A DNA stretch of 64,000 nucleotides, from contig UQNF01000002.1 in assembly GCA_900542285.1 (NCBI GenBank), positions 10,376 to 74,375 on the forward strand, written 5' to 3'. This DNA comes from an uncultured Clostridium sp. (lineage in GTDB: Bacteria > Bacillota > Clostridia > Christensenellales > CAG-138). Shown piece by piece: positions 16,976-55,509 of the stretch. Numbering within the stretch: the stretch's first letter is position 1; each line of letters starts with the position of its first letter. The notes under the pieces are model-generated. The model had not been told where the DNA came from and searched no databases. It worked only from the letters and a program-made list of their open reading frames with translations. A program made the translations under genes and the position numbers.

Positions 16976-16987
16976 ACGGCCTCCTCC

Positions 16988-18131: not shown

Positions 18132-18202
18132 TTTCCTTCAAGGAACTCCGGCTCCTGAATATGGATGCGCAGCCCGTCCAAACGCTCTTGTATGTCAGCC
18201 AT
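18122..18202 (-). pseudogene. brxB: brxB (DUF1788) 5' remnant, about 26 codons
   Basis: MADIQERLDGLRIHIQEPEFLEGKGLS resembles the conserved BrxB N-terminus (EFL...GL). Homology then stops and the PglX sequence continues in another frame. Confidence 0.55.
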
Positions 18203-18214
18203 ATTGTGCCTCCT

Positions 18215-20770: not shown

Positions 20771-20986
20771 ATCCTTGCCTCCGATGTTATTACCTTTAAT
20801 ATTAGCATAAAACAATGCATTTTTCAAGCATTTGCAGATTATTCCCTTATTATCATGCTCAAAATACGGTATTAGATTCATATTCAGCTTTGAAGGCTTG
20901 ACAGCAGGCGCATTATTTTGTAACATTCTATTTACGGAGTTTACATCTGAGTACAGTAAAAAGAATAAAGGATGGGGGGCGAAAAA

Positions 20987-25077: not shown

Positions 25078-25272
25078 GGGTTGATGAAGCAGCTGAGCCG
25101 GCAGGGTGTGCCTGCAAAAGATGATCGGGAGCTCATGGCAGACCGGTTTTGTCTGTCCGTTTCCGTAAGGATAATGGGTTGATGAAGCAGCTGAGCCGGC
25201 AGGGTGTGCCTGTAGAAGATGATCGGGAGCTCATGGCAGACCGGTTTTGTCTGCCGTTTCCGTAAGGATAAA
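25078..25272 (+). repeat. 2 x ~98-bp tandem direct repeat with embedded hairpins and mini-ORFs
   Basis: Unit 1 is 25078-25175 and unit 2 is 25176-25272; they differ by 2 substitutions and 1 single-nt indel. Each unit contains the hairpins GCAGG-gtgtg-CCTGC and GGCAGAC-cggtttt-GTCTGCC. Confidence 0.9.
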
Positions 25273-40700: not shown

Positions 40701-42586
40701 GATTTCGTTAAGTCCTTTATCGCTTTCCACACCTGCTGTATCTCACTTATACTTAGCTTGGTTTGGTTGAGCAGGATGAAATGCTTGTCCAAGTCGCTGT
40801 CGTTATAAAGCACATAACACTCTGCCTGCATATCGGGATCACGCCCTGCGCGTCCGGCTTCTTGCACATAGTCTTCCAGCGAACTTGAAATATCGTAGTG
40901 AACTACCAGCTTAACATCCTTTTTGTCTACACCCATGCCGAAAGCGGACGTTGCAACTATGACTTTCACCTCATTTCGACTGAAAGCCTCTTGGGTTGTT
41001 ATTTTATCGTTCGGATCCATTTTCCCGTTGAACGGCCTTGCAGGGAAACCATCACTTGTCAATTTCTCAGCGATTTCCCGAGTGCGTCTTGTTCTGGAAA
41101 CATAGACGATCGTTGGGCAATCCTTCTGCGCAATGAGGTTGCGGAGCGCACTGTATTTTTCTTCATCGGTTTCCTTGTACAGAACCGTGTAATGCAGGTT
41201 TTCGCGCGTTGCCGTGGAAGCAAAGAGCTCAAGATCCAAATCCAGCTTTTGCTTAAAGTAATCGCGGATATCACTGATTACTTTTTGCTTTGCTGTTGCC
41301 GTAAAACATGATACAGGTATTGGCTTTTTAGCGATCTTTTTCTTCTGCAATTCCCGAATAAAATCACCGATGTACAAATAATCGACGCGAAAATCCTGCC
41401 CCCATGCGGAGAAACAATGCGCTTCATCGATCACGAAACGGACGATATTCCGCGAAACCAAAATTCTTTCTATCGTGCGTGAACGCAATTGCTCGGGTGA
41501 AATATACATCAGTGTTGCGGATCCATTCTTGACTCGTTCCAGCGCATCCGCTCGTTCAATCGGATTAAGAAGACCGTTGACCGTTACAGCCTCCGTGATG
41601 CCGATACTGTTCAGATTGTCCACCTGATCTTTCATCAGGGATTGCAGCGGCGAGATAACAACCGTCAATCCATGAGCTGCTCTTCCTGCCATAAGCGCAG
41701 GGAGTTGAAAAGTTAAAGACTTTCCTCCGCCCGTCGGGAAAACCGCAAGCAATGATTTGCCTTCTGCCGCTGCTTGCACCGCCTTCTCCTGAAGCGGCTC
41801 GCCATTAAATGTTCTGAAACTGTCATAGCCAAAAATCCGCTTTAGATTGACGTGAATGTTAAGCGCATTTTTGCAATACACACACCCTTCTGCGCATGGG
41901 GTATTGCGGAGATATTTGATTACGTTTTCGATCTTTGGATAGTTCCGCAGGAGCCACGGCGGCGTAATAGAATAAAAGTCATCTGCTCCTATAAGTGCGA
42001 GGGCGTATGCAAGTTCAACCGGGTAGTGACGAATCAAAGGAAGAATATCCGCTTTTTCACATATCTTCCCTGCATATGCGCTGCGGATCAGATCCTGCAC
42101 ATTTGAATTGCACGGTTTGAAATTCAAATATTCAAAAAAACCGGTGAATTCGGGATAACCGTACAACAGGCAGCAGAAGATCCGCTGAACCTTTGCTGGC
42201 AGCGCAAAAAAAGCATTGACTTCATCATAAAAAAGATTTGCGGCCTTTTTGCAATCATTTACAGGATTATTAAGCTCTTCTGTTTGGAGCTTGTCGTCTT
42301 TCAGCAGGGCGTGGTATGGACGCTTTGGAAACAAAAGCGGTGACAGATAGAGCGTGTCAATTACTCCGACATTTATCTCCTTGCCAATAGCGGCTTGAAT
42401 GTACTTCAAATCATGGTAAATGATATTATGACCGCAAACAAATTCCGCTCCGAAAATAAACCGGATGAAATCACTAATGGAAGCGGAGTGAAAATAAGTC
42501 CTATTATTTCGTACCGCGCCAAGATCATGTATCTTCTTATCCTCAACACCGATCTCGGCGTCAATAAATACAACGGACTTTGCCAT
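37766..42586 (-). CDS. 1,606-aa fusion protein: DEDDh 3'-5' exonuclease + RecQ-type SF2 helicase + UvrD-type SF1 helicase
   Basis: Exonuclease motifs: VVFIDAEIG, FVCGHNIIYHDLKYI, YHALLKDD. RecQ motifs: AVFPTGGGKSLTFQLPAL, DEAHCFSAWGQDFR, CFTATA, SAFGMGVDKKDV, QEAGRAGRD. UvrD motifs: VAAGPGSGKTRVLVHK, LTFSRAAATEF, VLVIDEAQDMD, VGDDDQNIYEFRGS, TENYRS, TIHKAKGREFDSVYM, YVGMTRAKNELYI. Confidence 0.85.
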   Translation of the reverse strand: MAKSVVFIDAEIGVEDKKIHDLGAVRNNRTYFHSASISDFIRFIFGAEFVCGHNIIYHDLKYIQAAIGKEINVGVIDTLYLSPLLFPKRPYHALLKDDKLQTEELNNPVNDCKKAANLFYDEVNAFFALPAKVQRIFCCLLYGYPEFTGFFEYLNFKPCNSNVQDLIRSAYAGKICEKADILPLIRHYPVELAYALALIGADDFYSITPPWLLRNYPKIENVIKYLRNTPCAEGCVYCKNALNIHVNLKRIFGYDSFRTFNGEPLQEKAVQAAAEGKSLLAVFPTGGGKSLTFQLPALMAGRAAHGLTVVISPLQSLMKDQVDNLNSIGITEAVTVNGLLNPIERADALERVKNGSATLMYISPEQLRSRTIERILVSRNIVRFVIDEAHCFSAWGQDFRVDYLYIGDFIRELQKKKIAKKPIPVSCFTATAKQKVISDIRDYFKQKLDLDLELFASTATRENLHYTVLYKETDEEKYSALRNLIAQKDCPTIVYVSRTRRTREIAEKLTSDGFPARPFNGKMDPNDKITTQEAFSRNEVKVIVATSAFGMGVDKKDVKLVVHYDISSSLEDYVQEAGRAGRDPDMQAECYVLYNDSDLDKHFILLNQTKLSISEIQQVWKAIKDLTKSRTSVCCSPLEIARQAGWDDSVSEIETRVKTAVSALESAGYVKRGRNMPHVYATSILAKDMREASFRIDQSALFSEDQRKNAKRIIKSLISSRSITDAGNDDAESRVDYLADTLGMTKEEVINAVNLMRQEGLLADTQDMSAYILASDTEYKSSLILDRFAKLEKFLLSQLTSDGCDFNLKELNELAHAEGIAASSVKSLLTLIYYHTIKNYVGKSQYGASKTVRLIPLLDIGKLVEKYRLRIDLCRFILDVLYSKAGELAATDREEKPVLFSLVGLYSEYKAMPNMNTSAYEASLSDVEDALLYLSKIGALKLEGGFLVLYNGMEIKRLITDNRIKYKVDDYRFLDEFYKQKIRQIHIVGEYANLMVRDYDAALQFVQDYFQMDFRKFISKYFKGERAKDIDRNITPGKYNRLFGELSDVQYQIINDADSKYIVVAAGPGSGKTRVLVHKLAALLLLEDVKHEQLLMLTFSRAAATEFKKRLVSLIGNAANFVEIKTFHSYCFDLLGKIGSLEGVDNVVRNAAELIRNGEVEQGKITKSVLVIDEAQDMDDDEFDLVRALMQNNDDMRLIAVGDDDQNIYEFRGSNSRHMRTLIEEYGAVKYEMTENYRSKSAIISLGNAFVSSIKDRMKSTPIEAVESDAGTVIITHHCGKHMEAAVVDQIISTRGNARCCVLTNTNDEALQLLGLLTKNRVRAKLIQSLDGFRLYNLAEIRFFLKQIDRTLRTPVISDELWQRAKKQLYDTYAGSTCYEICVNLIRDFEATNPTKYRTDLEEFINESCYEDFYDDEGETVYVSTIHKAKGREFDSVYMMLNGNTAAADEEKRKIYVGMTRAKNELYIHCNTRLFSSFDIPGVMHKEDSHVYDEPAEISLQLAHRDVVLDFFKDKKRTVLQLRSGAELSIKDAFLYTELNGRGVPIAKLSKACIDTLQGLEGRGYHPYSADIRFIVAWKGEDDTEEIAVVLPNLHFRRQSICRNKG

Positions 42587-43327: not shown

Positions 43328-43574
43328 CGACAGTGAAGGTGTAACCGAAGATATGTTGGCGCGTCGATCATAGCTGACACTGTTTTCCTGCAATAAGTCC
43401 TGCGGCAAGCGTAGACCGGCGGCTCGGGTATGGGGGTCGCTCCATTGACCGAAAACAATGTGTGCATAAAAGCAAAGGGCTGCTGAAAAAGCGTACATCG
43501 CTTGGACAGCGGCCCCATGATATCCGAATATCTGTTGTCATTGTTGTCGGGGCCTAACTCAGCAGCCCCAATGG

Positions 43575-43766
43575 TTATTTCGTGCCTATCGCCGCCTCAA
43601 GCAGTGTTCTAAGCTCCCTCAGCTCGTCCGCAAGGAGCTTGAAATTCTGATTCAGGCAGTTCTCGTTGGCTTTGACATCGGCTTCGTAATCGAGCCTGTC
43701 AATGCCTTCCTCCCTGCCGGAGGGCAGGGCAACATAGTAAAGTGCTCTCATCTCCATATCCGTCAT
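43575..43766 (-). CDS. small phage-associated protein (63 aa), unknown
   Basis: Last ORF of the co-oriented structural string, starting 19 nt after the preceding gene. C-terminal coiled-coil-like sequence LADELRELRTLLEAAIG. Confidence 0.35.
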   Translation of the reverse strand: MTDMEMRALYYVALPSGREEGIDRLDYEADVKANENCLNQNFKLLADELRELRTLLEAAIGTK

Positions 43767-43784
43767 CTCCTCATAGCGATATTG

Positions 43785-45197
43785 TCATTCCGTTCCGCAC
43801 CGTTCGCTTATCAGAAGCTCCAGTCCGCCGACAAGCTCCAGCGCACCGCCCTCATCGTTGGAAATGACGAGCTGTATCGTCCTTCCCTCGTCCGCAAGGG
43901 GTATCTCCAGCACCTCTTCCTCGCCCGACGGCATACGGCGGTTGTAGGTGTTCAGGTGAACGCCCGAAAGCGTCGTGACATTCACCTTTCCGCCGCTGCC
44001 CCTAAGATAAAGCTTTCGGAGGCTCTTTATCGTACCCTTGTCGCCAAGATCGGTCAGCGGCGTCGTCCAGTAGGCGTCTATCATCTCGCCGTCATAGCTG
44101 TAGCCGATACCGAACCGATAGATGTATCCGCTGCCGTTTGTAAACAGCAGCCAGCCGTTGACGCTTGCCATGCAGCCGATGGAAAAGCCCCGGTGCAGAA
44201 GGTACTTCCTTTCAAGGATATCGTATTCCACCAGCATATCCTCCCTGCCTTGACGGATGTTGAAATAGAGCTTGTCGCCGACGGTCACGACATGGGACGA
44301 AACGATCAGCGCGTCCCTCATTAGCTTCTTTATCCTGAAGATATCCGCGCTGGGCCTTGCGGTGACGCCGTTATAATAGTAAAGTCCGCTGCTCGTCAGG
44401 AAGAACAGCACGTCACCGTACGCTGCTATGGCGTGCTGCCTTGCGGAGCGGTAGCTGGCGTCGATATGCTCGATCGTGAAATTGGACGGTCGATCACCTA
44501 TGAGCCTGAATAGGCTGCTGCGCTTGAAGATTAGAAGCTGGTTTGACAGCGCCGCTATTCCGATGATTGGGTCGCCTCCCGATGTTCCTACCTCCGCATG
44601 GCCGCCCTCCACGGCAGGGGAGGCTTCGATATAGCCCCAGTTGTCGATGCTCCGTCCGTCCCCGGGCAGTACGGAATAGTAGAGTCTGTTAGGATTTTCG
44701 CCGTCCCCGGCGGCAAAGAGCCTGCCGCGGTACATGGCGAGATAGGAAATGGGCATATCGGAGCAGCCCTCCTCAGAGCCGAACTGGGATACGCTTTCGC
44801 CGTCGTATTTTATCAGCGGATGGATGCCGTCGGCGATAATAAGGCAGTCGGCGGTGCCTATTTGTGCCATAACGGAATCGAACTCAGCTCCGCTCAAGCT
44901 TCCCTGTATCGTGTAAAGGCTTTGCCAGCTCATGTCCTTGTAGGCGTAAACTGTGCTGCCTGCGATAACGACAGGGTATTGCGCCGTGCTGCTGCGGTAG
45001 TAGGTCAGGTGCCGTATCCTGTCCGTGCCGGGTATGGGGTCGGGGAGCAGCTTAATAAAACCGTGCGCAAGGCTCAGCCTTCCGCCGTCGGTGGAAACGT
45101 TTGCTGCGTCGGGCGAGCAGGAAGGGGAGATACGGTTCTCGTCCATGCTCTGGTCAAGCCCTGAAAATCCGTCAATCCTGTATCGTTTAAGTGCCAT
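43785..45197 (-). CDS. phage structural protein, beta-propeller-like (possible tail hub/nozzle, P22 gp10-like by size and position)
   Basis: 470 aa with recurring blade-like strands (VVIAGSTVYAYKD, GRLFAAGDG, QLLIFKRSSLFRLIG, VLFFLTSSGLYYYNG, DKLYFNI, GWLLFTNGSGYIYRFG). The functional call is inference from gene order. Confidence 0.4.
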   Translation of the reverse strand: MALKRYRIDGFSGLDQSMDENRISPSCSPDAANVSTDGGRLSLAHGFIKLLPDPIPGTDRIRHLTYYRSSTAQYPVVIAGSTVYAYKDMSWQSLYTIQGSLSGAEFDSVMAQIGTADCLIIADGIHPLIKYDGESVSQFGSEEGCSDMPISYLAMYRGRLFAAGDGENPNRLYYSVLPGDGRSIDNWGYIEASPAVEGGHAEVGTSGGDPIIGIAALSNQLLIFKRSSLFRLIGDRPSNFTIEHIDASYRSARQHAIAAYGDVLFFLTSSGLYYYNGVTARPSADIFRIKKLMRDALIVSSHVVTVGDKLYFNIRQGREDMLVEYDILERKYLLHRGFSIGCMASVNGWLLFTNGSGYIYRFGIGYSYDGEMIDAYWTTPLTDLGDKGTIKSLRKLYLRGSGGKVNVTTLSGVHLNTYNRRMPSGEEEVLEIPLADEGRTIQLVISNDEGGALELVGGLELLISERCGTE

Positions 45198-45205
45198 GAT
45201 TCACC

Positions 45206-45745
45206 TCAGAATTTATTGATTATGCGGTACGAATCCTCCGCTCCGCGCTGTATTCTCAGCTGCGATTTGGCGTTCTCGAACATGGAAAGGTAGATGTTTC
45301 CGCCCCTCTGGGAGTTCACGTCGCCCACGAGTCTTTCGCGCCCGACTACATAGGTGACTATAAGCCCCTGAACGCCCTGGTCAAGCTCGCATTCGTCCGA
45401 GCTTCGCATTAGCTTTTTGGGCTGACAGCGGTAGGTGATGAGCGCAGGTGAGTTGTAGGGAAGCAGTATTCTGTCGCTGTTGTCGCCGCTCCCGAAGGGG
45501 ACGCAGTGTCCCTGCTGCACCACCCTCAGCACCTTGACGCAGACCCTTGGCAGGCTTGACAGGGTGATAACGCCGCCGTCGGCAGGCACGGTATCGGTCC
45601 TGTAAAAGCCTATCGCGTCCGCAAGCTCCTGCTGCGCCTGGTTGGCGTAGAGCGAAAATCGTATCCGGCATTCGGAAACGTTCGCGGCGTCGCTGCTCCG
45701 TCCGAGCTGTGTCAGCGCGGAAACCGTGATTTCGTTAAGATTCAT
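45206..45745 (-). CDS. phage structural protein (possible head-tail adaptor)
   Basis: 179 aa, directly upstream of the hub-like gene with an 8-nt gap. The function is positional inference only. Confidence 0.35.
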   Translation of the reverse strand: MNLNEITVSALTQLGRSSDAANVSECRIRFSLYANQAQQELADAIGFYRTDTVPADGGVITLSSLPRVCVKVLRVVQQGHCVPFGSGDNSDRILLPYNSPALITYRCQPKKLMRSSDECELDQGVQGLIVTYVVGRERLVGDVNSQRGGNIYLSMFENAKSQLRIQRGAEDSYRIINKF

Positions 45746-45759
45746 CTTTGCTCCTCCCT

Positions 45760-45972
45760 TCAGCCGAGCCTCGCTCCGCTGCCGCAGGTGAAACGGCGAT
45801 AGCGGCTTTCACTCAGCATTCGCTCCGCCTCGCCGGCCCTTATCAGCTCCGCAAGCGCTTCCGGCACTTCAACGGGTACGCCGCGCTCGATCCTGTAGTT
45901 TACGGAATTGATGCAGCCCTCCCAGGGGAGGTTATCCCGTGTTCTTTCCAATGTGATGGTTACTTTTTCCAT
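45760..45972 (-). CDS. small phage-associated protein (70 aa), unknown
   Basis: Tightly packed with the following gene (14-nt gap) on the same strand. Confidence 0.35.
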   Translation of the reverse strand: MEKVTITLERTRDNLPWEGCINSVNYRIERGVPVEVPEALAELIRAGEAERMLSESRYRRFTCGSGARLG

Positions 45973-45998
45973 TTTTTCTTCCTTTCATTTTCTCATTG

Positions 45999-46027
45999 TT
46001 GAACTTTGTCACGGCTTGATGTAAAAT
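45999..46027 (+). promoter_or_regulatory. candidate promoter of the EamA gene (TTGAAC-N17-TAAAAT)
   Basis: TTGAAC at 45999-46004 and TAAAAT at 46022-46027 with a 17-nt spacer; AAGGAG RBS before ATG 46075. Confidence 0.4.
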
Positions 46028-46074
46028 AGGGGACGCCTGCCCAAGGCCTTTATTTCCCTATAAGGAGCATATAA

Positions 46075-47043
46075 ATGAGACGCAAGACCCTGATAGGCGT
46101 GCTCTGTGTAGTCCTCGCCTCCATGTGCTACGGCATAACGCCCATCCTCTCCAATGCCGCTCTCCGCGGCGGCCTGCCTGCGGATTTCGTCCTCCGCGTG
46201 TTCGGCGAAGGGGCCGTTTCCGTCATGGCAGCGGATGCGAGCCGTGCCATGAGCAATGAAAGCGTCGTCGGCATCAGCATGGGCATTGCCTGCGTGCTTT
46301 CGGCTGCGGTATGCCTTATCGGCGGCAGACGCCTCCGCGTCAGCGGCAAACAGACATGGCAGCTCCTCGTCATGGGCGGCGGCGCATTTGCGGTCACCTG
46401 CCTGCTCATCTCCTTTGCGTATAATTTCATACCGGCAGGCATGGCGATAGTGCTGCATTTTACCTATCCGGTATTCGTGCTGCTTGCGTCCCTGCTCTTC
46501 TTCGGGGAAAGGGTCACGCCGCTCAGGCTCTGCTCGCTCGCCGCCGCGATAGCAGGCATCGTGCTTATGTCGGTCGGCAGCTTCGGCGGCAGCATAAAGC
46601 CCATAGGCATCATTCTCGCCCTGATATCGGGCATGACCTATGCCGCATACTTTCTCGCCGGCAAAAACGCCTCCTATTCGGAGCTTGATACCCCCATATC
46701 CAACACCTATATCACCGGCGCTGCCTGCGTTGTATGCATCGCCGCAGGGCTTTGCGGAGGGAGGTTCTCCGTTCCGTCCGATTGGTTCATGTGGGTGATA
46801 CTCGTGCTGGAGGCGCTCCTCGGCTATGTCATCGGCCTGCAGCTCCTGCTGAAGGGGGTGCGGCTCATAGGCTCCTCCGCCGCGTCCGCACTCAACACCT
46901 TGGAACCGGCCTTCGCTTCGATAACAAGCATGATAGTCTTCGGCGAAACGATGGGTCTTTTGAAGGGTTCGGGCGTTGTTCTTGTGCTCTTGGCGGCGCT
47001 TGCAAGCATTCTTGCGCTCAGAAAGAGCGGCGCAGAGGCGTGA
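46075..47043 (+). CDS. EamA/DMT-superfamily transporter
   Basis: 322 aa with about 10 TM helices in two homologous halves; typical DMT pattern (..ASMCYGITPIL.., ..LNTLEPAFASITSMIVFGE..). Confidence 0.8.
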   Translation: MRRKTLIGVLCVVLASMCYGITPILSNAALRGGLPADFVLRVFGEGAVSVMAADASRAMSNESVVGISMGIACVLSAAVCLIGGRRLRVSGKQTWQLLVMGGGAFAVTCLLISFAYNFIPAGMAIVLHFTYPVFVLLASLLFFGERVTPLRLCSLAAAIAGIVLMSVGSFGGSIKPIGIILALISGMTYAAYFLAGKNASYSELDTPISNTYITGAACVVCIAAGLCGGRFSVPSDWFMWVILVLEALLGYVIGLQLLLKGVRLIGSSAASALNTLEPAFASITSMIVFGETMGLLKGSGVVLVLLAALASILALRKSGAEA

Positions 47044-47044
47044 T

Positions 47045-47797
47045 TCAGGCAGTGTCCAGATGGGCCTCGACGAATTCCTTCACGCCTATCATGGTCTGCC
47101 TGCCGCATTTGCCGTCCACTCCGCCGCAGTAGTAGCCGAGTGAGTTGAGCGCACGCTGCAGGTTCTTTATCGCATCGCCCTGTATCATGGGCTTTGTGAC
47201 GGAAAGCACCACCTGCTCGTCATAGCAGTTCTCATCGTAGATGAGCTGGCGTGTCACAAGCCCCCTGTGGGTCCAGGGTCTTTCACTGAGCTTTGTCACG
47301 ACGACGCCGAAGCGTATTCCCCTTGCTTCCACGACAAGCGGCTCGCCGTTCAGAAATCCGCAAACCCAGCCCACATGGCTCATGCGTCCGTCGGGGTTCC
47401 GGTAAAACACCGCTTCGCCGAGCTGATAGCTTCGGTCCACCTCGTTCAGTGCGCCCTTGTCGCTGCACCATGCGATATAGCAGTAGTTGGCGTTCACGTC
47501 CGTACCGATGTAAACATCGAGCAGCCCCTGGCAGTCGCAGGCTCTGACCTTGCCGAGCACCCAGCTTTCGGTCGCATTTCGGTAGCTCTCGCCCGACCAG
47601 CCCTTTTTGCTGTAATAGCACTTGAACCGCTGCTCCAAAAGCTCCCGGGTCACGATGTTGCCGGTCGTCCCGAACAGGTATTCCCAAGGCTCCGTGCCGC
47701 ATTCCTCGATATCAAGGGGCAGCTCCGCACCCTCCGGAATGCTTTCGCGCTTGCAGTGTGAAAGTGCAAAGCGTACGAAATCGATAGCGTTTTTCAT
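47045..47797 (-). CDS. NlpC/P60-type peptidoglycan hydrolase with C-terminal PG_binding_1 domain (phage lysin-like)
   Basis: Catalytic Cys in CDCQGLL and His in RMSHVGWV. C-terminal GDAIKNLQRALNSLGYYCGGVDGKCGRQT. Start ambiguous: ATG 47797, or ATG 47911, which would overlap the upstream gene by 44 nt. Confidence 0.7.
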   Translation of the reverse strand: MKNAIDFVRFALSHCKRESIPEGAELPLDIEECGTEPWEYLFGTTGNIVTRELLEQRFKCYYSKKGWSGESYRNATESWVLGKVRACDCQGLLDVYIGTDVNANYCYIAWCSDKGALNEVDRSYQLGEAVFYRNPDGRMSHVGWVCGFLNGEPLVVEARGIRFGVVVTKLSERPWTHRGLVTRQLIYDENCYDEQVVLSVTKPMIQGDAIKNLQRALNSLGYYCGGVDGKCGRQTMIGVKEFVEAHLDTA

Positions 47798-47867
47798 TTT
47801 CTTGTTCGTTCCTTTCTCATGTTTCAAAATTCGATCGAAAGTCAGGCCCTGCTTTTCCCATATGCGC

Positions 47868-48797
47868 CTAATCGAGCGTATTGGGACGGTTTGACCTGCT
47901 TCCTGCGCCACTGCGTCCGTAGCCGCTGCCGGATCCGCTTCCGTTTGCGGCTATGCCGAATATCTCATCGATAAGCCGTTCGTATTCCCCGGGCGTCAGG
48001 GCTGACTGCGCGCTCTCCCTCAGCTTTCGCCAGTAGCTCAGATTTGAGTGCAGGAAGGACTGCCTGTCGTTGGGCTTGAGCGAGGAGATATAATTAAAGT
48101 ATTCGTTGTAGTATCCGGAGCTTTCGCTTTCCTCCGGCTCGTCAGCGCCGCCTGCGAGCCGATTGCGGTAGGCTATCTCCTCCATGGCGTTCCTGTGCTG
48201 AAGCTCTGTCTCATACAGCTGCGCTCTTATCCTTGCAAACTCGACGGAGGCGTTGTAGACGTATTGGGCAAGTTCTGCGCTGTAATCGGATTCGAGCCTT
48301 GCGATATCTCGGGCTATCGAATCGTATTCACGCTTTTTCATGCTCGAAAGATAGGTTGAGCCGCCCATTCCGCGCGAATAGGCGTCGGCGTCCAGCTCCG
48401 CCATAGCCGTCATGCCATAGTTCCTCCTGTCCTCAATAGCGGCATCGACCGCCGGGCGAAGGAAGGCTTCAAGCTGTGAATAGAGGCTTTCGAGGCCGGG
48501 AAGATCGGGCGATGCTCCGTAGCTCTGCAGCGTTGAGATGATGCTGCCGTAGTAATCGTCGATGCTGCCGCTCTGCGCTCCCTGCGCCGAACCTGCGGAA
48601 TTTGGGGCGGATACGGCCGAATCGCCATTGCCGCTTTCATAGAGCGAACCGGGGCCGTATGCCCTTTGGGAGGCGTTTCCGCCGACGGGAGCGATCGTCC
48701 CGGCTGCCTTTTCGACGGAGCCGCGCTTTACGGCGGAGCTGTCCTCCGCAACGGCGTCGGCAAGCTTCTTCCTCCTTCGGTAAAGTTTATATGCCAT
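47868..48797 (-). CDS. phage-associated protein, unknown (Gly/Ser-rich termini, central helical region)
   Basis: Start at ATG 48797 (GAAAGGAAG 5 nt upstream). Lies between the capsid and lysin genes. No recognisable motif. Confidence 0.5.
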   Translation of the reverse strand: MAYKLYRRRKKLADAVAEDSSAVKRGSVEKAAGTIAPVGGNASQRAYGPGSLYESGNGDSAVSAPNSAGSAQGAQSGSIDDYYGSIISTLQSYGASPDLPGLESLYSQLEAFLRPAVDAAIEDRRNYGMTAMAELDADAYSRGMGGSTYLSSMKKREYDSIARDIARLESDYSAELAQYVYNASVEFARIRAQLYETELQHRNAMEEIAYRNRLAGGADEPEESESSGYYNEYFNYISSLKPNDRQSFLHSNLSYWRKLRESAQSALTPGEYERLIDEIFGIAANGSGSGSGYGRSGAGSRSNRPNTLD

Positions 48798-48858
48798 ATT
48801 CTTCCTTTCCGGGATCATGGGCGATTTAGGAGGCCCACGATCCCTTGCCGAGCCGGTT

Positions 48859-50067
48859 TTAGGATACGGTATGCTCGATCCTTACGAGCCAAAGGTCGTT
48901 GAGTATCGCCGCGGTGTATGCGGTGACCTTTGCTCCGATGGTCGCCCTCTGGTCGAGGGGGTCGGCGGTGCCGGAGCTGCCGTGGGGCTTGACGATGAGC
49001 TGAACTGCACCCTTGCCTTCGACGTCGATAACGCCGTAAGCGTCCTTGCCAAATACGAGCGCACAGTGAACGTCCAGCGCCTTGCCGTCGCTTCCCTTGG
49101 ATGCCGCATCGTTGCTCCAAACCTCAGCGTTGGCGGTGAGGCTTGCGGCTGCGGAAAGGGTGACGGTATTGGTGTCCTCATCAAAGGGGGCTACGGCTGC
49201 AAGCGTGTATTCGTTGGAGCCTATCATGATTTTGTTGCCGGGGACGGAGAGGTACTCGATCTCGGCCTTTGTGGGGGTGTTCGCAAGCACGAAGGAGGTG
49301 CTTGAGTTCGTGGAGCTCTTAACGAAATTGCGTACTGCCTGCGTATATACCTTAGCCTCGGTGCTTTCGACGAATACCACGCCGTAAAGCATTCCGATCT
49401 CGCCGCTGTAAACGGCCTCTGCGTTGCTGTAAGCGGAAACGTTCTTCCACATCTCATCGCTCTGAAGGTCGTAGGTGGCCTCGGGTGAGCAGATGCAGAT
49501 ATAGTGGGGCTTTCTGCCGTCCTCAGAGAACTGGCGCGCCTTGTTCTTCTTGAGCGTGCGCACCGCCTTCCTGACCTCATCGGTGGTGAGCCTGTCGCTC
49601 GAGGTCAGCGCGGAACGGGATGTCTTGCCGCCTGCATACTGGACGTTGGTTCCGGCGCACATTGCGTCTCGGGTTACCCACTCGACGACGGTGCCGAGCT
49701 GTTCGCCCAAAAGCTCTGCGGAATCGTTGATGACGGCATCGTATGCGGTGAGGTCGAGGAGATCGCTGACCTCGACATATGCGCCGTACTGCTTGACCTC
49801 CGCTTCAACGTCGCTCTGCGAGAGGGTCTGTCCGCTCGGGGTCACGCCCTCAACGAGGCCGCGCATTGCGCTCTGGGGGTCGAAAAGGTTCCAGCGGCGG
49901 AAGTTTACATACTTGCCGTTTCCGCGCGGGATGGGTCGCTTCTGGCCGAATTCGGCGTGAACGAACCTGGTCTTTGCGCTCTCCAAAAGCTGCCTGTCAT
50001 AAAACTTCACAGGGAATTTCGCGCTCTGTGCTGCGCTGACAGTGGTGTTAATATTGATATTTGCCAT
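48859..50067 (-). CDS. phage major capsid protein (HK97-fold; N-terminus resembles N4-gp56-family MCPs)
   Basis: 402 aa. The N-terminal block ..KFYDRQLLESAKTRFVHAEFGQKRPIPRGNGKYVNFRRW.. matches my recollection of this capsid family. Preceded by a scaffold-like gene. Confidence 0.7.
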   Translation of the reverse strand: MANININTTVSAAQSAKFPVKFYDRQLLESAKTRFVHAEFGQKRPIPRGNGKYVNFRRWNLFDPQSAMRGLVEGVTPSGQTLSQSDVEAEVKQYGAYVEVSDLLDLTAYDAVINDSAELLGEQLGTVVEWVTRDAMCAGTNVQYAGGKTSRSALTSSDRLTTDEVRKAVRTLKKNKARQFSEDGRKPHYICICSPEATYDLQSDEMWKNVSAYSNAEAVYSGEIGMLYGVVFVESTEAKVYTQAVRNFVKSSTNSSTSFVLANTPTKAEIEYLSVPGNKIMIGSNEYTLAAVAPFDEDTNTVTLSAAASLTANAEVWSNDAASKGSDGKALDVHCALVFGKDAYGVIDVEGKGAVQLIVKPHGSSGTADPLDQRATIGAKVTAYTAAILNDLWLVRIEHTVS

Positions 50068-50142
50068 AGTTGTTCCTTTCTTTTCTTCTTTTTTGTGTGT
50101 TTATCGTGCGTTTACGGTCTTGGGCTGAGCCGCCGCAGCCGT

Positions 50143-50721
50143 TCAGATCCTGACCCTGCGGCCGTCCATGCTCGCCTTCTTTAGCTGTCTGCGGAGCTTG
50201 CGGAAGTCCTCACTGCTCATGTTCTCATAGTCGGTTTCCGGAGCCTGTCCCATGCTGCCGCGTATCGGCCTTGGGAGCATTGCGTTCCTTTTGGCGTTCA
50301 TGCTGTCCTGACCGTCCTCCGGACCGTCCGGACTGTCCTTTGGACCGTCCGTGTTGTCATTTTCATTGTCCATGCGTCGCAGAAGCGTTACCACAACGGC
50401 AATGGGGTTGATGCCCTCCGGGATGCCGACACGCTCCAGCATCGCTTCGCCGAGCATCATTGCGGCACGCTCATAGCTGTCATGGCTGCCATTGCTGTCG
50501 CCGCTGTCCGAACCGTCCGCATTGTCAGCATTGTCCGAATTGTCCGTATTGTTTTCGCCGCCTGCATCCGCAGGGGCGGTGCATATCTGTTCACCTTCGC
50601 ACCCTTCCGCGGCCTTCCTGCCGCTCTTGGCGGTTCCATTCGCCTCTTCTTTGGGGTTCGGCTTGCCCCTTGTACCTGCGAGCCTGTCGAGAAGCTCCTG
50701 CAGTTTCTTATTCCTGCTCAT
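50143..50721 (-). CDS. possible capsid scaffolding protein (acidic, low complexity)
   Basis: 192 aa with D/N/S/G-rich linkers (DNSDNADNADGSDSGDSNGS and DGPKDSPDGPEDGQDS) and a basic C-terminal helix. The position just upstream of the capsid gene suggests a scaffold. Confidence 0.4.
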   Translation of the reverse strand: MSRNKKLQELLDRLAGTRGKPNPKEEANGTAKSGRKAAEGCEGEQICTAPADAGGENNTDNSDNADNADGSDSGDSNGSHDSYERAAMMLGEAMLERVGIPEGINPIAVVVTLLRRMDNENDNTDGPKDSPDGPEDGQDSMNAKRNAMLPRPIRGSMGQAPETDYENMSSEDFRKLRRQLKKASMDGRRVRI

Positions 50722-51044
50722 TTTTCTTTCGGGCTGCGTGTTTCAGCAGCCCATCCTTTCTCCCCGGGACTGATGCGCCGCCCGGGGACGGCTTTTCCGA
50801 TACGGCCGAAGCTCCCCAAGATAAAATAAAGCCCTCCGCAGATGAGTTGGATTTCTGCGGAAAGCTCTTTTCATCAGCCCGGCTGTAAAGGTGTATGACG
50901 GAAAGAGCGATGCCAATTCTGCCAACGCAATTCCCATCGACAACTATTATACCACATTTGGAGAATTAAATCAACTGTTTAGAGAATTATTTTTGAAAAA
51001 ATCTCTACTTACGAGATTGAAATGACAAATCCTTCCTCCGGATT

Positions 51045-51365
51045 GTCCCAACCAGTGCGGCGAGTTAACCCCCGACCGCCAAGCAGGGAGCGAGTTCCCC
51101 GGTTTTCCAGAACAAAGCGGCGAGTTTCCCGAACTGTCCATACCAGTTCGGCGAGTCGTACTCCGACCGCCACGCAGGGAGCGAGCTTCTCCGGCTTTCC
51201 CGAACTGTCCAAACCAATGCGGCGAGTCGTCCCCCGACCGCCAAGCAATGCGGCGAGCTTCTCCGGCTTTCCCGAACTGTCCAAACCAATGCGGCGAGTC
51301 CCCTCATGCACCCCCGAACAGTGGGCGAGTATCTTTTGCTTCCCCGAATTTTGCGGCGAACTGTG
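51045..51365. repeat. array A: ten phased copies of a GCGGCGAG-type 8-mer inside higher-order 61-72-bp repeats
   Basis: 8-mers start at 51057, 51087, 51117, 51148, 51178, 51219, 51250, 51291, 51322 and 51353, with spacings of 30, 30, 31, 30, 41, 31, 41, 31 and 31 nt. A 41-nt block is exactly repeated at 51186 and 51258. Confidence 0.9.
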
Positions 51366-51447
51366 CTCAGAACAAAAACAGCACAGCACTCACCATCGGT
51401 AATGAGGGTATCCAAATACAATGGCCTTCGCGCGCACACACACGCAA

Positions 51448-51486
51448 GCACGAGGCGGCTTTGCCGCCCGTGCTTATGTTTTTTTA
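51448..51486 (+). terminator. GC-rich hairpin plus T-run between the two arrays (terminator-like)
   Basis: GCACGAGGCGGC-ttt-GCCGCCCGTGC (11 bp, one bulged A), followed by TTATGTTTTTTTA. Confidence 0.4.
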
Positions 51487-51521
51487 TAATTTTTTTATTA
51501 ATATTATTTTATTTTATTATT

Positions 51522-51770
51522 GGGTGACAAATCGTGACTTTATTGACCTATTTTGTCACCCCCCCTTAAGACCTGATTTGTCGCACCCTAAGTCCTATTT
51601 TGTCACCCCCCCTCAGACCTGATTTGTCGCACCCTCAGACCTGATTTGTCGCACCCTAAGTTCTATTTTGCCACCCCCTCCTCAGACCTGTTTTGTCCCC
51701 CCCTCAGACCTGTTTTGTCACACCCTCCGATCGGCTTCTTTGTTCGCATTATGACCACTTTTGTCACCCC
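51522..51770. repeat. array B: about 11 direct copies (21-25-bp period) of a TTTGTC(A/G)C-containing iteron plus one inverted copy, adjacent to an AT-rich tract
   Basis: TTTGTC (or 1-nt variant) starts at 51552, 51577, 51599, 51623, 51645, 51667, 51692, 51714, 51739 and 51760. The exact 22-mer cctcagacctgatttgtcgcac occurs at 51611 and 51633. The inverted copy GGGTGACAAA (51522-51531) pairs with TTTGTCACCC (51552-51561). The tract 51474-51521 is almost pure A/T. Confidence 0.9.
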
Positions 51771-51807
51771 CTCCGATCGGCTTTGCAGTTCGCATATTGG
51801 CCTGCCA

Positions 51808-51891
51808 ATCACAGCTGAGAAGGACTTTAGCAACGGCATTATCAATACTGCCGACGCCCTCCTTGCGATAAGGGTAGGCATGGGGCTGTAA
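51808..51891 (+). pseudogene. possible 3' remnant of a dockerin-containing gene
   Basis: The frame ends in AEKDFSNGIINTADALLAIRVGMGL*, which resembles the second Ca-binding segment and helix of type I dockerins (D.N.DG.IN..DAL..LR...GL). No upstream coding part remains. Confidence 0.3.
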
Positions 51892-52021
51892 GCCGATCGC
51901 CGTCTGCGACTTAATACGAGTTGAATAGTTAACGAATGTTTTTTCGTTCTCCATGCGCCGGACATCTGCCCGGTGCATTTTCCATCATCGGAGTATCTGC
52001 TCTCATTCATGGCACGGATTA

Positions 52022-52058
52022 AATAAAAAACACCGCCCCGAAAGCCGGAGCGGCGGTG
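52022..52058 (-). terminator. rho-independent terminator of the DHHW operon
   Basis: Minus strand: CACCGCC...GGCGGTG hairpin followed by TTTTTTATT, 10 nt after the stop at 52069. Confidence 0.6.
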
Positions 52059-52068
52059 AAAAAACGAA

Positions 52069-53232
52069 TCATCTCAGCCAGACGAGATCGCCGGTGGTCT
52101 GTGCGGTGTCCACGCCGTAGATAACGAGAAGCTCCTCTATACCGTATTCGGAACAAAGCTCCGAGGGGAGCGGCATTGCGGAGTTAAAGTACCTGACATC
52201 CAGCATGACTATCCTGCTGTAATGGTTTGCAAGGAACGGCACTATCGCATTGCCGTAGCTGTCCTTCAGCACCAGCAGCGTTCCGCCCTCGGCGTTTGGA
52301 TTCTCGATAACGGTGATGCCGTGGTTGCTGTACAGATATGCCGCATAGCGGTCAACGACGCCTTCCTCAAGGCAGCTTTCGTCTATCATGCCGCTGTGGG
52401 CGGTCTCCTTGCCGCCGTCAATGGTGGTAACGGCGATGTCGGAGTCGCTGTCCGCAGTCCAAACCTCCAGACTGTCGGGCTTGGTCAGCATAAGACCGCT
52501 GCTGCCGTAGCTTGTGCCGTAAAATTCAAATGAACGCTTGGAAAACTCCGACTCAGGCAGCGGAGTGAAGCCAAGGCTTTCCCCAATGCTTTGGTACAGC
52601 AGATAGCTGCCCTGCATCGTCAGATGGTGGTCGGTGCGGTAGTAGAGGGAGGATACATCCGCTGCGGATGAAAAAAGCTCCCCGACAGGAATGCTACTGC
52701 CGCCGGCCGCCTCCGAAAAGCCGCTGACAATGCTGCCGTCATCGTATTCAAGGTGAAGCTTCGGGAGCTCATCTTCGAGCATATAGCCGGAGCTCGGAAT
52801 GATAACGAGCGTTGTGTTAAGGGAATTTTCCTCGGCAAATCTCTTTACAAGGCCGCCGTTCGTCAGGAGCTTGGCTTCATCGTATACCGTTGGGGTGTTG
52901 AAAAGCCTGTCGCCCTTGCCCATGATGATGCTCTCGGTCGCGTTGCGGCCGGTATAGCGGTTGAGATAGGAATAGAGCGATACGAAGAAATTCCTTGCCG
53001 GGAAATGGTCCTGCAGCCAGGTGTCCACCTCTGCGGCAAAGTTTCCGCTGATAAAGCTGCTCAGGCTGGCGTCCGGAGCCTTGGCAAGCATACGCCGTTC
53101 GTTCGGGCTAAGCTCGCCCTCATGCTTGGGCAGAAAGCATATGAGCAGAAAGAATACGACGATAACCGCCAAAAAAGCGGCTATCATCGCGATCTGTGAT
53201 GTTCTGACCTTGTTGTTACTTGATGAGCTCAT
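52069..53232 (-). CDS. DHHW-family protein (AlgX/AlgJ-like, putative polysaccharide O-acyl transfer accessory)
   Basis: N-terminal TM anchor. LSPNERRMLAKAP....FP.R and the YYRTDHHLT motif (a DHHW variant). Confidence 0.7.
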   Translation of the reverse strand: MSSSSNNKVRTSQIAMIAAFLAVIVVFFLLICFLPKHEGELSPNERRMLAKAPDASLSSFISGNFAAEVDTWLQDHFPARNFFVSLYSYLNRYTGRNATESIIMGKGDRLFNTPTVYDEAKLLTNGGLVKRFAEENSLNTTLVIIPSSGYMLEDELPKLHLEYDDGSIVSGFSEAAGGSSIPVGELFSSAADVSSLYYRTDHHLTMQGSYLLYQSIGESLGFTPLPESEFSKRSFEFYGTSYGSSGLMLTKPDSLEVWTADSDSDIAVTTIDGGKETAHSGMIDESCLEEGVVDRYAAYLYSNHGITVIENPNAEGGTLLVLKDSYGNAIVPFLANHYSRIVMLDVRYFNSAMPLPSELCSEYGIEELLVIYGVDTAQTTGDLVWLR

Positions 53233-53716
53233 CCAACAGCTTCTCCGCAGCGGGGTTGTCGTTAGTGATTATGAGAAATGCGTACTGACCGACGACCTTG
53301 TTGATGCAGGTGTTGAGCTTGTCGAGCTGGTCGGGGCCGTAGTTGCTGTAATCGTGGATATAGGCGTCTACACGGCTTGCAAGGTATTCTTCGCTTATTT
53401 TCTTTGCGGAAGCCTCATCAACGGCCTTGATAACGAGCACGGTCTCGGGGGTAGAGGAGCATACGGCAATGCAGCCGACATAGCTGTCTCCGTCCTTGGC
53501 GACGAGTGCAAGGTCGATGCCGAACAGCTTGCCGATAGCGAACTCGCTGTCAGCGATGATTGCGGGCTTCTCCTCAAAGGAGCAGCCGTCGATAAGCCTT
53601 TGCGCCGTATCCTTTGGGTCGATGCTGATATTTGCAGGGGTCTTGCTGCAGGCTGCGGCGCTTAACAGCATAATGCAGGCAAGCAGGATAACGATGAGCT
53701 TGTTAGTGGTTTTCAT
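53216..53716 (-). CDS. DUF4358-like lipoprotein
   Basis: Lipobox LLSAAACS, size 166 aa, and the usual pairing with DHHW genes. Family assignment from memory. Confidence 0.5.
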   Translation of the reverse strand: MKTTNKLIVILLACIMLLSAAACSKTPANISIDPKDTAQRLIDGCSFEEKPAIIADSEFAIGKLFGIDLALVAKDGDSYVGCIAVCSSTPETVLVIKAVDEASAKKISEEYLASRVDAYIHDYSNYGPDQLDKLNTCINKVVGQYAFLIITNDNPAAEKLLDELIK

Positions 53717-53756
53717 ATGTGTTCCTCCAAAGTTTTATTAGTTCTGTTCAGTGGTC

Positions 53757-54656
53757 TCAGTTTCCTCTCAACGCAGCCATGACGGTCAGGCAGATGTGGT
53801 CGGCCCAAACCGAGGAATACTGCATATTGAGGTGCATTCCGTCGCTCGATGCGTCGTCGGGCAGGTCTCCGTCGGCGGTTATCATGACGTCCGGAACGGT
53901 GATATAGTAGCAGCCCCTGGTCCTTGCAAGCTGCTCTATCTGCTCATTGTACATGCGAACGCGCTCATTGTTCGCTCCGGTCTCGCCGCCCTGTGCGCTC
54001 TTCGCCTTGGAGAACGGGGGGAGTCCGGTCAGGAATATCTTGGCGTTCGGATGCATTTCCCATACATCGGTTATGAAGTCGGAATAGTGATCGATGAACG
54101 AGGTCAGGCTCGGCCAGCCAAGCTCATTCTGCCCGAACATCAGTATTACCGCCTCATATTCGCCGTCCTCCAGCTCCTGTATGATGGGGATGGTACCGTC
54201 GGTCTTGGGATCGGTATAGACGGACAGGATGTTCAGTCCGACCTTGGTCATAAACTTGCCGTGAGTGATGACGCCGTAGCGGTAAAGCCCTTCAAACACG
54301 GAATTGCCGACGAACACGCTGTTGTCGAATACCGAATAATCGGGCTCGGGCGCAGCTGTATAGCCGGGGACGGGCGTTGCCGTGGGCTCAGGGGTGGGCG
54401 TGGGCGCTTCCGTATTGAGCGGAGGCTCGGTCACGTCCGTCACTTCCGTAGGGACGGGTACAGAGGTAGGGGAGTTCGTGCCGTAGATGTCAATAGGGGT
54501 TTTGGGATCGTCGGGCTGCCTTGAGGCTCTGATAAGCAGCACTGCAAGCACTACCGCCGTAATGCCGACTATTGCCCATGCGATCTTGGCAACGACGGAC
54601 AAGCCGTCATGCTTTCTGCCGTTAAAATTGTGCATCTGTCTGTCCTTGCTGAGCAA
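53757..54656 (-). CDS. membrane-anchored SGNH/GDSL-type hydrolase
   Basis: TM anchor, a Pro/Thr-rich linker, then SGNH blocks FVGNSVFEG (block I), GQNELG (block III) and SDGMHLN (block V, DxxH). Confidence 0.7.
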   Translation of the reverse strand: MLSKDRQMHNFNGRKHDGLSVVAKIAWAIVGITAVVLAVLLIRASRQPDDPKTPIDIYGTNSPTSVPVPTEVTDVTEPPLNTEAPTPTPEPTATPVPGYTAAPEPDYSVFDNSVFVGNSVFEGLYRYGVITHGKFMTKVGLNILSVYTDPKTDGTIPIIQELEDGEYEAVILMFGQNELGWPSLTSFIDHYSDFITDVWEMHPNAKIFLTGLPPFSKAKSAQGGETGANNERVRMYNEQIEQLARTRGCYYITVPDVMITADGDLPDDASSDGMHLNMQYSSVWADHICLTVMAALRGN

Positions 54657-54818
54657 GGTCTCCTTTCATAAAGCAAATGAACGAATCCTTTCGTTCGGAG
54701 CAGAAATAGTATTCCATGCGATCCGGACTAATTATAGCAGATATTTTTACGGATATCAACCTTTTGCGTTCGGCAGCGGTTATGCTGCTTAAAGCAGTTT
54801 TTTTACGGATATTTACTG

Positions 54819-54856
54819 CAAAAACCGATGCGGACACATCGCTTTGGCCGCATCGG
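54819..54856 (-). terminator. rho-independent terminator after the DUF4430 gene
   Basis: Perfect 9-bp stem CCGATGCGG (54825-54833) / CCGCATCGG (54848-54856), with TTTTT following on the minus strand. Confidence 0.6.
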
Positions 54857-54898
54857 AGATTATGGCATTTCTGTTAATCCTTAAAAACGGAAGCCGGC

Positions 54899-55393
54899 TC
54901 AGCCGCCGAAATCGGCACCGATATCTTCGCCGCCGTCAACGGTGTAGATCCATTCCACCAGGTCGCCGTCGTTCAGTATGACGCTGTCGGCGCCAACCTC
55001 GGGGAATTCGCCGTTGACACGAAGCAGCCAATAGCTTGCGTCGCCGAATGCGCCGTTTTCGATGCCGCAAATACCCTTGACGAACAGACCGTATGCTCCG
55101 TTCTCGCTGTTGAGCGCGATCGAGTGGACCTTGCATACGAGCGTAAGCGCACTGCTGACGCTGCAGCCCTTGTTGACGGTGAGTTTCTCCGAACTGTAAA
55201 TGAGTCCGTCATTGGGAAGCTTCGATTTGAGGTCCGGATCGATAGCCTCGTTATTATAGGCGGTCGAAGAGTCGATAACGAATTTGATACTGATATTGTC
55301 CGCTTTATCGGTGGTATCCGGCGATTTGAATGCGCAGCCGCCGAATGCCAGCAGCAGCGCGAGCGACAGGAACAGGGAAACAAATTTCTTCAT
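54899..55393 (-). CDS. DUF4430 lipoprotein
   Basis: Start at ATG 55393 (AAAGGAGGG upstream). Lipobox LLAFGGC. C-terminal WLLRVNGEFPEVGADSVILNDGDLVEWIYT is typical of DUF4430. Confidence 0.65.
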   Translation of the reverse strand: MKKFVSLFLSLALLLAFGGCAFKSPDTTDKADNISIKFVIDSSTAYNNEAIDPDLKSKLPNDGLIYSSEKLTVNKGCSVSSALTLVCKVHSIALNSENGAYGLFVKGICGIENGAFGDASYWLLRVNGEFPEVGADSVILNDGDLVEWIYTVDGGEDIGADFGG

Positions 55394-55509
55394 AGGGTAT
55401 GACCCTCCTTTAACTAATGGCTTAATTATACACATTTCTTAACAATTTGCAAGCAAAGGTATCAAATCGCTGCAATATGGGGATATTAGGGCGTGAATAC
55501 GGAGGGAAT

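Follow-up and report, generated by a model that had tools for sequence, protein, structure and literature searches.

The window analyzed here, a 64-kb stretch of contig UQNF01000002.1, is a chromosomal segment of a human-gut Clostridia bacterium with a GC content of 52.8%, and it carries within a non-coding gap a set of direct repeats of about 22 bp, termed Array B, that stands beside a tract made up almost solely of A and T. Given its descent and its architecture, Array B together with this A/T tract is probably an orphan module of a phage theta-replication origin, of the class represented by lambda O and SPP1 G38P. The features of the module are as follows:

51446-51475, plus strand: GC-rich hairpin of 13 pairs with one bulge, terminator-like (a T-run follows), abutting the A/T tract
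51474-51521, no strand assigned: A/T tract, candidate DNA-unwinding element (DUE), 47 of 48 positions A/T, with TTTTTTTATAA-like repeats of about 11 nt inside
51521-51531, minus strand: inverted iteron copy, reading TTTGTCACCCa on the minus strand and GGGTGACAAA on the plus strand
51545-51728, plus strand: eight tandem direct iterons with the consensus aGACCTrwTTTGTCrCmCCCtma, cores starting at 51552, 51577, 51599, 51623, 51645, 51667, 51692, and 51714
51729-51798, plus strand: array tail, consisting of a degenerate unit (51729-51752), a ninth good iteron (51753-51774, core at 51760), and another degenerate unit (51775-51798)
51890-51910, minus strand: partial inverted copy of an iteron 3' half and the start of a degenerate unit, 76% complementary to 51717-51737

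The core of the repeat unit (iteron), TTTGTCRCMCC or, written more broadly, TTTGTC[A/G/C]C[A/C]CC, is present in Array B at one mismatch or fewer as nine direct copies and one inverted copy. The nine direct cores are spaced at 25, 22, 24, 22, 22, 25, 22, and 46 nt, and the two degenerate units fill the 46-nt gap and the tail of the array; the count of about 11 direct copies given by an earlier reading of the letters (the original prediction) is therefore fair as nine clear copies and two degenerate ones. Elsewhere in the window, only three scattered matches to the core are seen, each with one mismatch. The resulting 13 matches compare with 3.2 +/- 2.0 in shuffled sequence, where 13 was reached in 0 of 100 shuffles. 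Similarly, the 19-mer GACCTGATTTGTCGCACCC has three exact copies, and five at three or fewer mismatches, versus 0 in shuffles, and Tandem Repeats Finder assigns to Array B a period of 22 with 8 copies. Positions G-7, C-4, TTTG, C5, C7, and C9-C11 are invariant among the iterons; the copies vary at positions -2, -1, 6, and 8, in the C-run, and in the spacer. In addition, higher-order units of 46/69 nt are present, including a 46-nt pair (51707-51752 and 51753-51798) of 80% identity, and one 22-mer is duplicated exactly at 51611 and 51633, just as had been claimed.

The A/T tract and the inverted copy have likewise turned out as originally described. Across the whole 64 kb, 48-nt windows with at least 44 A/T positions are found solely at 51470-51480, making the tract unique in the window. 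The inverted arm GGGTGACAAA (51522-51531) is 100% complementary to TTTGTCACCC (51552-51561), with 20 nt between them, and its TTGTCA overlaps, at the first hexamer, a promoter-like site that faces left, TTGTCA-16-AATAAT (51530 to 51503). No rep gene follows this site; the DNA to the left consists of the hairpin and of a second repeat set, Array A, which is also non-coding. The region of the hairpin (51430-51600) has a minimum free energy of -27.2 kcal/mol (z = -6.0). At the other end, the partial inverted copy at 51890-51910 includes a perfect 10-mer match, CGATCGGCTT/AAGCCGATCG; the likeness is weak, but this copy may be a second inverted arm, and given the two positions, 51521-51531 and 51890-51910, Array B may be bracketed by inverted copies at both ends. 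A minus-strand open reading frame (ORF) at 51718-51978 (86 aa) overlaps the degenerate iterons, and the searches made revealed no homologue: it lacks a Pfam or PHROG match, and tblastn gave no match in phages or plasmids even at E = 1. It has been treated as spurious.

The assignment to a phage origin comes from the places in which the same core is found. When IMG/VR was scanned for TTTGTCNCNCC cores in sets of three at spacings of 21-26 bp, 33 contigs were recovered, versus about 0 expected by chance. In 28 of the 33, the array lies inside or beside a gene for a replication initiator, lambda O-like or DnaD-like, with an N-terminal HTH_36 winged helix. Typically the array falls wholly within an opposite-strand ORF of 230-285 aa (26 contigs); in one contig (L027), it is inside the initiator gene on the same strand, and in another (L015), four iterons and an A/T-rich tract are immediately upstream of the gene. 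The initiators are diverse, falling into 11 clusters below 50% identity. Thirteen representatives, which cover all 11 clusters, match Pfam HTH_36 and PHROG families annotated as "replication initiation protein" or "O-like" (phrog_270, 391, 678, 1032, and 428; best E = 1e-42). In a set of ten representatives and L035, HTH_36 is detected in every one and DnaD_N in most, and all except L035 match such PHROG families. The iterons of these genes always come directly after the winged helix, in most at codons ~90-160 (183-198 in L035). Lambda, with its ori inside O, has the same arrangement, as does SPP1, with oriL inside gene 38 (PMC6316719, PMC5737612). Relatives of the initiator family are found by tblastn in 228 cultured phages, lambdoid and Stx phages among them. 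Spacings in the viral arrays are 21-24 bp, and 32 of 59 intervals are not multiples of 3, which argues that the repeat is constrained at the level of DNA rather than as a peptide repeat. Thus, arrays like Array B do adjoin replication genes elsewhere, and the original prediction of an iteron-origin layout holds in that the same core and spacing occur at initiator genes; its choice of relatives does not, since the nearest kin are lambda O and SPP1 G38P rather than R6K, pSC101, RK2, or P1.

As an observation in its own right, the HTH_36 initiators of at least 11 clusters below 50% identity and a prophage of a Candidatus Synoicihabitans genome have a core in common, TTTGTCACCCC or TTTGTCGCCCC at ~22-bp spacing, which is often followed by secondary repeats of 11-26 bp (L007-L039, L053, L062, L065, L067). 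A looser version, GGGGTGAAC, is present in Arthrobacter phage Andrew, whose gp47 bears the annotation "replication initiation protein" and has four to five copies of ACGGGGTG(A/C)AC at 22-bp spacing in the same position of the gene, and four 11-bp secondary repeats come after them. No description of this shared signature was found in the literature searched, and a full-text search for the iteron sequences returned unrelated primers only.

The likeness of Array B to the viral arrays extends beyond the core. The nearest extended iteron, GACCTGATTTGTCACCCC, is located inside an HTH_36 gene of the Candidatus Synoicihabitans prophage (L053) and resembles the Array B iteron over 16-18 nt, with an 18-mer match; another extended iteron, ACCTGGTTTGTCACCCC, occurs in two viral contigs (L062 and L065), again inside HTH_36 genes. 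All of the core variants of Array B save one (TTTGCCACCCC) are also present in viral initiator-embedded origins. Furthermore, 6 of 27 non-redundant arrays have an inverted half-core, GGTGACA, no more than 70 nt away on the side of the A/T-rich region or secondary repeats, compared with 1 of 27 on the other side and ~0.4 expected by chance. Its offset is -31/-32 in three viral arrays and -29 in the window. The side bearing the inverted copy is the more A/T-rich one in 17 of 26 viral arrays, and, relative to the iterons, the A/T tract of the window occupies the side that in viral O-type origins is taken by the A/T-rich or secondary-repeat region. Hence, in a subset, the viral arrays match the window both in their polarity toward this region and in having an inverted end copy.

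It should be noted that several results weigh against Array B being a phage origin. Because the core and the spacing were the search criteria, they do not count as evidence, and independent agreement comes only from three features, namely the link to initiator genes, the inverted copy, and the polarity of the A/T-rich side. No initiator is detectable in the window: a profile of 20 initiators, run by hmmsearch --max against all stop-to-stop ORFs of at least 30 aa, yielded no match better than E = 3.9, and the best tblastn match had E = 0.056. Neither flank contains a pseudogene remnant or what is left of a winged helix or C-terminal domain, the extended iteron GACCTGATTTGTCGCACCC was not traced to any phage in IMG/VR, in GTDB representative genomes, or in JGI metagenomes, and there is no DnaA box TTATCCACA at one mismatch or fewer in 43470-55425. 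In addition, Array B has 9-11 copies, whereas 3-5 are usual in the viral arrays. Finally, the exact 22-mer duplicates and a 48-bp difference between strains are as compatible with the neutral dynamics of a minisatellite as with function.

Pfam and PHROG scans of the ORFs flanking the array revealed no initiator, and the absence of rep, par, and integrase genes within several kb, which had been predicted, holds for the whole window. The extended iteron pattern had 0 matches in IMG/VR; in GTDB genomes, it recovered only a dispersed repeat of Caldimicrobium and one O-type origin, that of Candidatus Synoicihabitans, and in JGI metagenomes, a search with a stricter two-copy pattern recovered nothing but this locus from a further sample. 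A 'distant' blastn of 50900-52100 against phages, plasmids, and Escherichia coli genomes gave no match. These scans identified no donor phage or cognate initiator.

The array does vary between strains of this species. One contig (L046) spans the locus fully and is identical except for a 48-bp deletion, which corresponds to exactly two iterons, and a second (L066) ends within Array B, with its iteron variants in a different order and Array A rearranged. Iteron number is consequently strain dependent. Such differences by whole units, together with the exact 22-mer duplicates and the 46/69-nt higher-order units, would be expected if Array B were a neutral minisatellite, a 22-bp unit that slippage or unequal exchange has expanded within a non-coding gap, that resembles phage iterons by coincidence, and that neither binds a protein nor has a function. 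The adjoining Array A is likewise variable and non-coding, and the cognate protein was not found in the window. However, the chance that a random 22-bp unit would have the core of nine specified bases is ~2e-4, the likeness reaches 16-18 nt, the inverted end copy lies at the same offset with the 47/48 A/T tract on the expected side, and the variation from copy to copy avoids the core. A neutral minisatellite is therefore unlikely, although it keeps a real share of the probability.

The setting of Array B bears on its origin. The surrounding features are as follows:

43600-50975, minus strand: phage-derived capsid cassette, left of the arrays
48859-50067, minus strand: N4-gp56-family major capsid protein (phrog_1357, E = 1e-68)
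50143-50721, minus strand: scaffold-like gene of the capsid cassette
Within the cassette, minus strand: genes for a 316-aa protein, a PG_binding endolysin-like protein, an SU10-adaptor-like protein, and a 470-aa virion protein
Within the cassette, strand opposite to the other cassette genes: EamA transporter
50974 to 50946, minus strand: capsid-cassette promoter, TTGATT-17-TATAAT
~50990-52030: non-coding, lineage-specific DNA holding Arrays A and B, between the cassette promoter and the DHHW terminator
51038-51362, no strand assigned: Array A, ~10 copies of CCARTGCGGCGAGTY with a spacing of 29-43 bp and a 72-bp higher order
52031-52055, minus strand: terminator of the DHHW gene
Right of Array B: housekeeping genes, namely DHHW, DUF4358, GDSL, DUF4430, DUF421, dnaG, sigA, and metG with a T-box leader

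In relatives with a capsid protein of 75-85% identity, the gene order of the whole cassette is retained, and in three related lineages it adjoins the same DHHW/DUF4358/GDSL genes. Across eight loci of six related lineages, the gap upstream of the scaffold gene is 142-408 bp, versus 1348 bp here, and both the core motif and the A/T tract are absent from it. When the window is compared with one of these lineages (L054), homology is lost within the 3' end of DHHW (~52136) and picks up again close to the promoter of the cassette (~50985). By this comparison, Arrays A and B, the hairpin, the A/T tract, and 250 bp of unique sequence form ~1 kb of DNA that is found only in this lineage. Since six lineages keep the cassette without the repeats, the arrays are not a decayed part of the capsid cassette, and the original proposal that Array B is a remnant of an adjoining decayed element fails on the same ground: the cassette is intact in those six lineages and the array is missing.

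The cassette itself, about nine genes in the same order, is present in at least six other Clostridia lineages (L054, L055, L058, L131, L133, L135), and its gene set also includes proteins of ~70 and ~60 aa. These lineages differ in chromosomal neighbourhood, and portal, terminase, and integrase genes never adjoin the cassette; in L058, portal and terminase genes lie 5 kb away, with Rrf2-IscS-NifU genes between. The cassette looks like a domesticated particle system or one resembling a gene transfer agent (GTA) rather than a randomly decayed prophage. Its 5' leader (50722-50974, minus strand) is conserved together with the promoter and has an 8-bp stem, GATGGGAA...TTTCCGTC, kept in 4 of 4 lineages, after which come a terminator-like hairpin and the scaffold gene. 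The leader may be an attenuator or a regulatory RNA. It has no Rfam match; in the whole window, only the metG T-box passed the gathering threshold, and an Rfam E-value scan of 50600-52200 gave chance matches only, all under the gathering scores.

Array A is built on the GCGGCGAGT motif and is unrelated in sequence to Array B, with which it shares the lineage-specific DNA. Its spacings are not multiples of 3 and its ORF frames are not conserved between strains, in keeping with its being non-coding, and several contigs of the species break inside it. A scan for the GCGGCGAGT motif returned 63 viral contigs, in which the spacings are mostly multiples of 3; this suggests coding repeats (Gly-rich, collagen-like), and the scan is thus uninformative.

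Two differing arrays of ~10 sites directly upstream of the cassette promoter might instead serve another DNA-binding protein, either as a partition centromere of the ParB/ParR type or as an operator for the capsid cassette, with Array A as a second set. The parC centromere of R1 also has ~10 direct repeats. However, there is no par or regulator gene nearby, and no parA/parB or parM/parR operon in the window, leaving the centromere function that had been suggested for Array B without support. In addition, the core matches initiator-embedded origins and not known parS sites, and the retention of the promoter and leader without arrays in six related lineages places the arrays outside the conserved control of the cassette. 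Both roles are accordingly quite improbable.

Even less probable is a packaging region, similar to pac or cos, for particles of the neighbouring capsid cassette. Array B does sit where the terminase and portal genes lie in intact relatives (L002, L006), and repeats bound by the small terminase are common in pac regions. Nevertheless, the window has no terminase, related cassettes lack the arrays, and the core is of the replication-initiator type.

The lowest likelihood of all is given to a dispersed family, such as repetitive extragenic palindromic (REP) sequences or miniature inverted-repeat transposable elements (MITEs), or to a chromosomal origin. A precedent for dispersal exists, in that a Caldimicrobium genome contains, at scattered places, a tandem unit of 21 bp whose core is similar. 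In the present window, however, the repeat has one locus, and the sole match in JGI metagenomes is that same locus; the database scans recovered only this locus, the initiator-embedded origins, and the Caldimicrobium repeat, so the dispersed family against which the original prediction had cautioned was not encountered. As for a chromosomal oriC, the sign of the GC skew changes near 52 kb, but the skew tracks gene orientation, there is no DnaA box within 3 kb, and dnaA and dnaN genes are lacking; this candidate was rejected. Separately, the Caldimicrobium repeat is a 21-bp unit, GAGCCCCTTTTTTGTCGCCCC, that occurs five to six times in tandem on several unrelated contigs of a metagenome-assembled genome (L049-L052, four contigs), and with its iteron-like core it is unrelated to initiator genes.

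The rest of the window consists of ordinary metabolic and defence genes (PglZ, SbcCD, a two-component system, and hydrogenase subunits), and no tRNA or integrase genes were found in it. A gene at 37766-42586 (minus strand), in a segment of ~45% GC, specifies a 1606-aa protein with a DEDDh-type exonuclease N-terminus followed by RecQ-like and UvrD-like helicases. This helicase, 9 kb from the array, was considered as an initiator and rejected, its weak match to phrog_270 (E = 0.0088) being judged not significant. A further contig of the species (L040) lacks the gene, and there a membrane protein gene abuts the hydrogenase genes. The segment is a strain-variable island and possibly carries a defence gene. 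An 869-aa PglZ-domain protein and its neighbours (14366-18820) suggest a BREX-type defence locus, beside which are a Fic-domain protein (19724-21001) and SbcCD (20972-24894). Two further repeats were noted: a 98-bp tandem repeat in two copies (25078-25271, 96% match), immediately downstream of sbcC, and a 39-bp repeat in 3.4 copies (10280-10412) within the ORF at 10124-11038.

If Array B is indeed an orphan phage origin, its mode of action can be modelled on lambda O and SPP1 G38P. In this model, a dimeric initiator with an N-terminal HTH_36/DnaD_N winged helix would bind the tandem ~22-bp sites through the core TTTGTCRCMCC in a cooperative manner. The initiator-DNA array would then wrap or bend the DNA and melt the adjoining A/T tract, after which the helicase loader and helicase would be recruited, as in SPP1 (PMC5737612). 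The inverted end copy, which overlaps the promoter-like -35 hexamer, may act as an operator; in layouts of the L015 type, its position would be that of the initiator's own promoter, which suggests such a role.

Since there is no initiator at hand, the module would be either a relic or a site acted on in trans. In the first case, it would derive from recombination with a phage replication region and would have been kept homogeneous by slippage or unequal exchange. In the second, a phage that resides in the cell or infects it would supply the initiator, and the module would serve as an additional binding site comparable to SPP1 oriR, as an origin that fires in situ, or as a decoy that titrates the initiator, in the manner of the phage-encoded resistance (PER) elements. 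That the array acts in trans at present is doubtful and, at best, a minority prospect. A more specific version, in which the host keeps the array as a trans site for a phage HTH_36 initiator that recognizes GACCTGATTTGTCGCACCC, is a long shot. As a decoy, the chromosomal array would titrate and handcuff the initiator upon infection or induction, providing a natural, single-copy defence similar to PER or incA. Alternatively, the array would fire in situ and amplify the adjacent N4/SU10-like capsid cassette, which is perhaps domesticated (GTA-like); phage attack would then be coupled to the gene dosage of the cassette.

Taken together, the comparisons portray Array B as a probable phage iteron origin of a known type, here orphaned. 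As a mere relic, it would be an ordinary footprint of recombination with a phage replication region. An origin module without an initiator beside a conserved capsid cassette is also a concrete candidate, open to testing, for local amplification activated in trans or for defence by an origin decoy in a gut anaerobe. Beyond this locus, a single core (TTTGTCACCCC and its close variants, at ~22-bp spacing) provides a simple sequence signature with which to locate the origins of phages with HTH_36 initiators in metagenomes.

Among known systems, the lambda origin lies inside the O gene and has four iterons of ~18-19 bp with internal dyad symmetry. It shares with Array B the tandem initiator-binding repeats directly beside an A/T-rich unwinding region, and the initiators tied to the Array B core match O-like PHROGs, with lambdoid and Stx phages among those in which tblastn finds their relatives. 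In contrast to lambda, the window has 9-11 asymmetric, non-coding units of ~22 bp and no O-like gene in 64 kb. The iteron origins of plasmids and of P1 (P1 incC/incA, R6K gamma, pSC101, RK2 oriV) resemble Array B in their ~20-22-bp direct repeats at about two helical turns, their A/T-rich DUE, and their inverted copy over a promoter-like site; P1 incA, with nine iterons but no DUE, works solely by binding RepA. The window differs in having no Rep_3/RepA-type gene or DnaA boxes and in a core that is that of phage HTH_36 initiators. In the pathogenicity and phage-inducible chromosomal islands (SaPI/PICI), satellites that rely on helper functions, repeat sets flank an A/T-rich region, much as Arrays A and B flank the A/T tract. 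The short iterons of SaPIs, however, are identical on both sides and stand beside their own pri-rep, while the arrays of the window are unrelated to each other and have no rep gene.

PER elements are non-coding phage origins, such as the ori of Sfi21, that hamper a superinfecting phage in a copy-dependent manner (PMC6356513). Like Array B, they are origin-like repeats apart from an initiator, and they act in trans on the proteins of the incoming phage; their effect has been shown with plasmid-borne or prophage copies, whereas Array B is a single chromosomal copy. Finally, SPP1 has two relevant regions. At oriL, direct repeats and a DUE are embedded in gene 38 (PMC6316719, PMC5737612), and at oriR, intergenic repeats and a DUE in the late (structural) region are bound tightly by gp38 and are thought to stall forks (PMC6316719). 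The gene for the SPP1 initiator lies in the same phage genome at a distance of 13 kb, in contrast to Array B with no known initiator; G38P belongs to pfam09524 (per PMC5737612) rather than to HTH_36, and the SPP1 repeat sequences are unrelated to those of Array B. Nevertheless, oriR, like Array B, is a unit of repeats and DUE without an initiator gene of its own beside it, and Array B, in a Firmicute, is positioned just upstream of scaffold and capsid genes.

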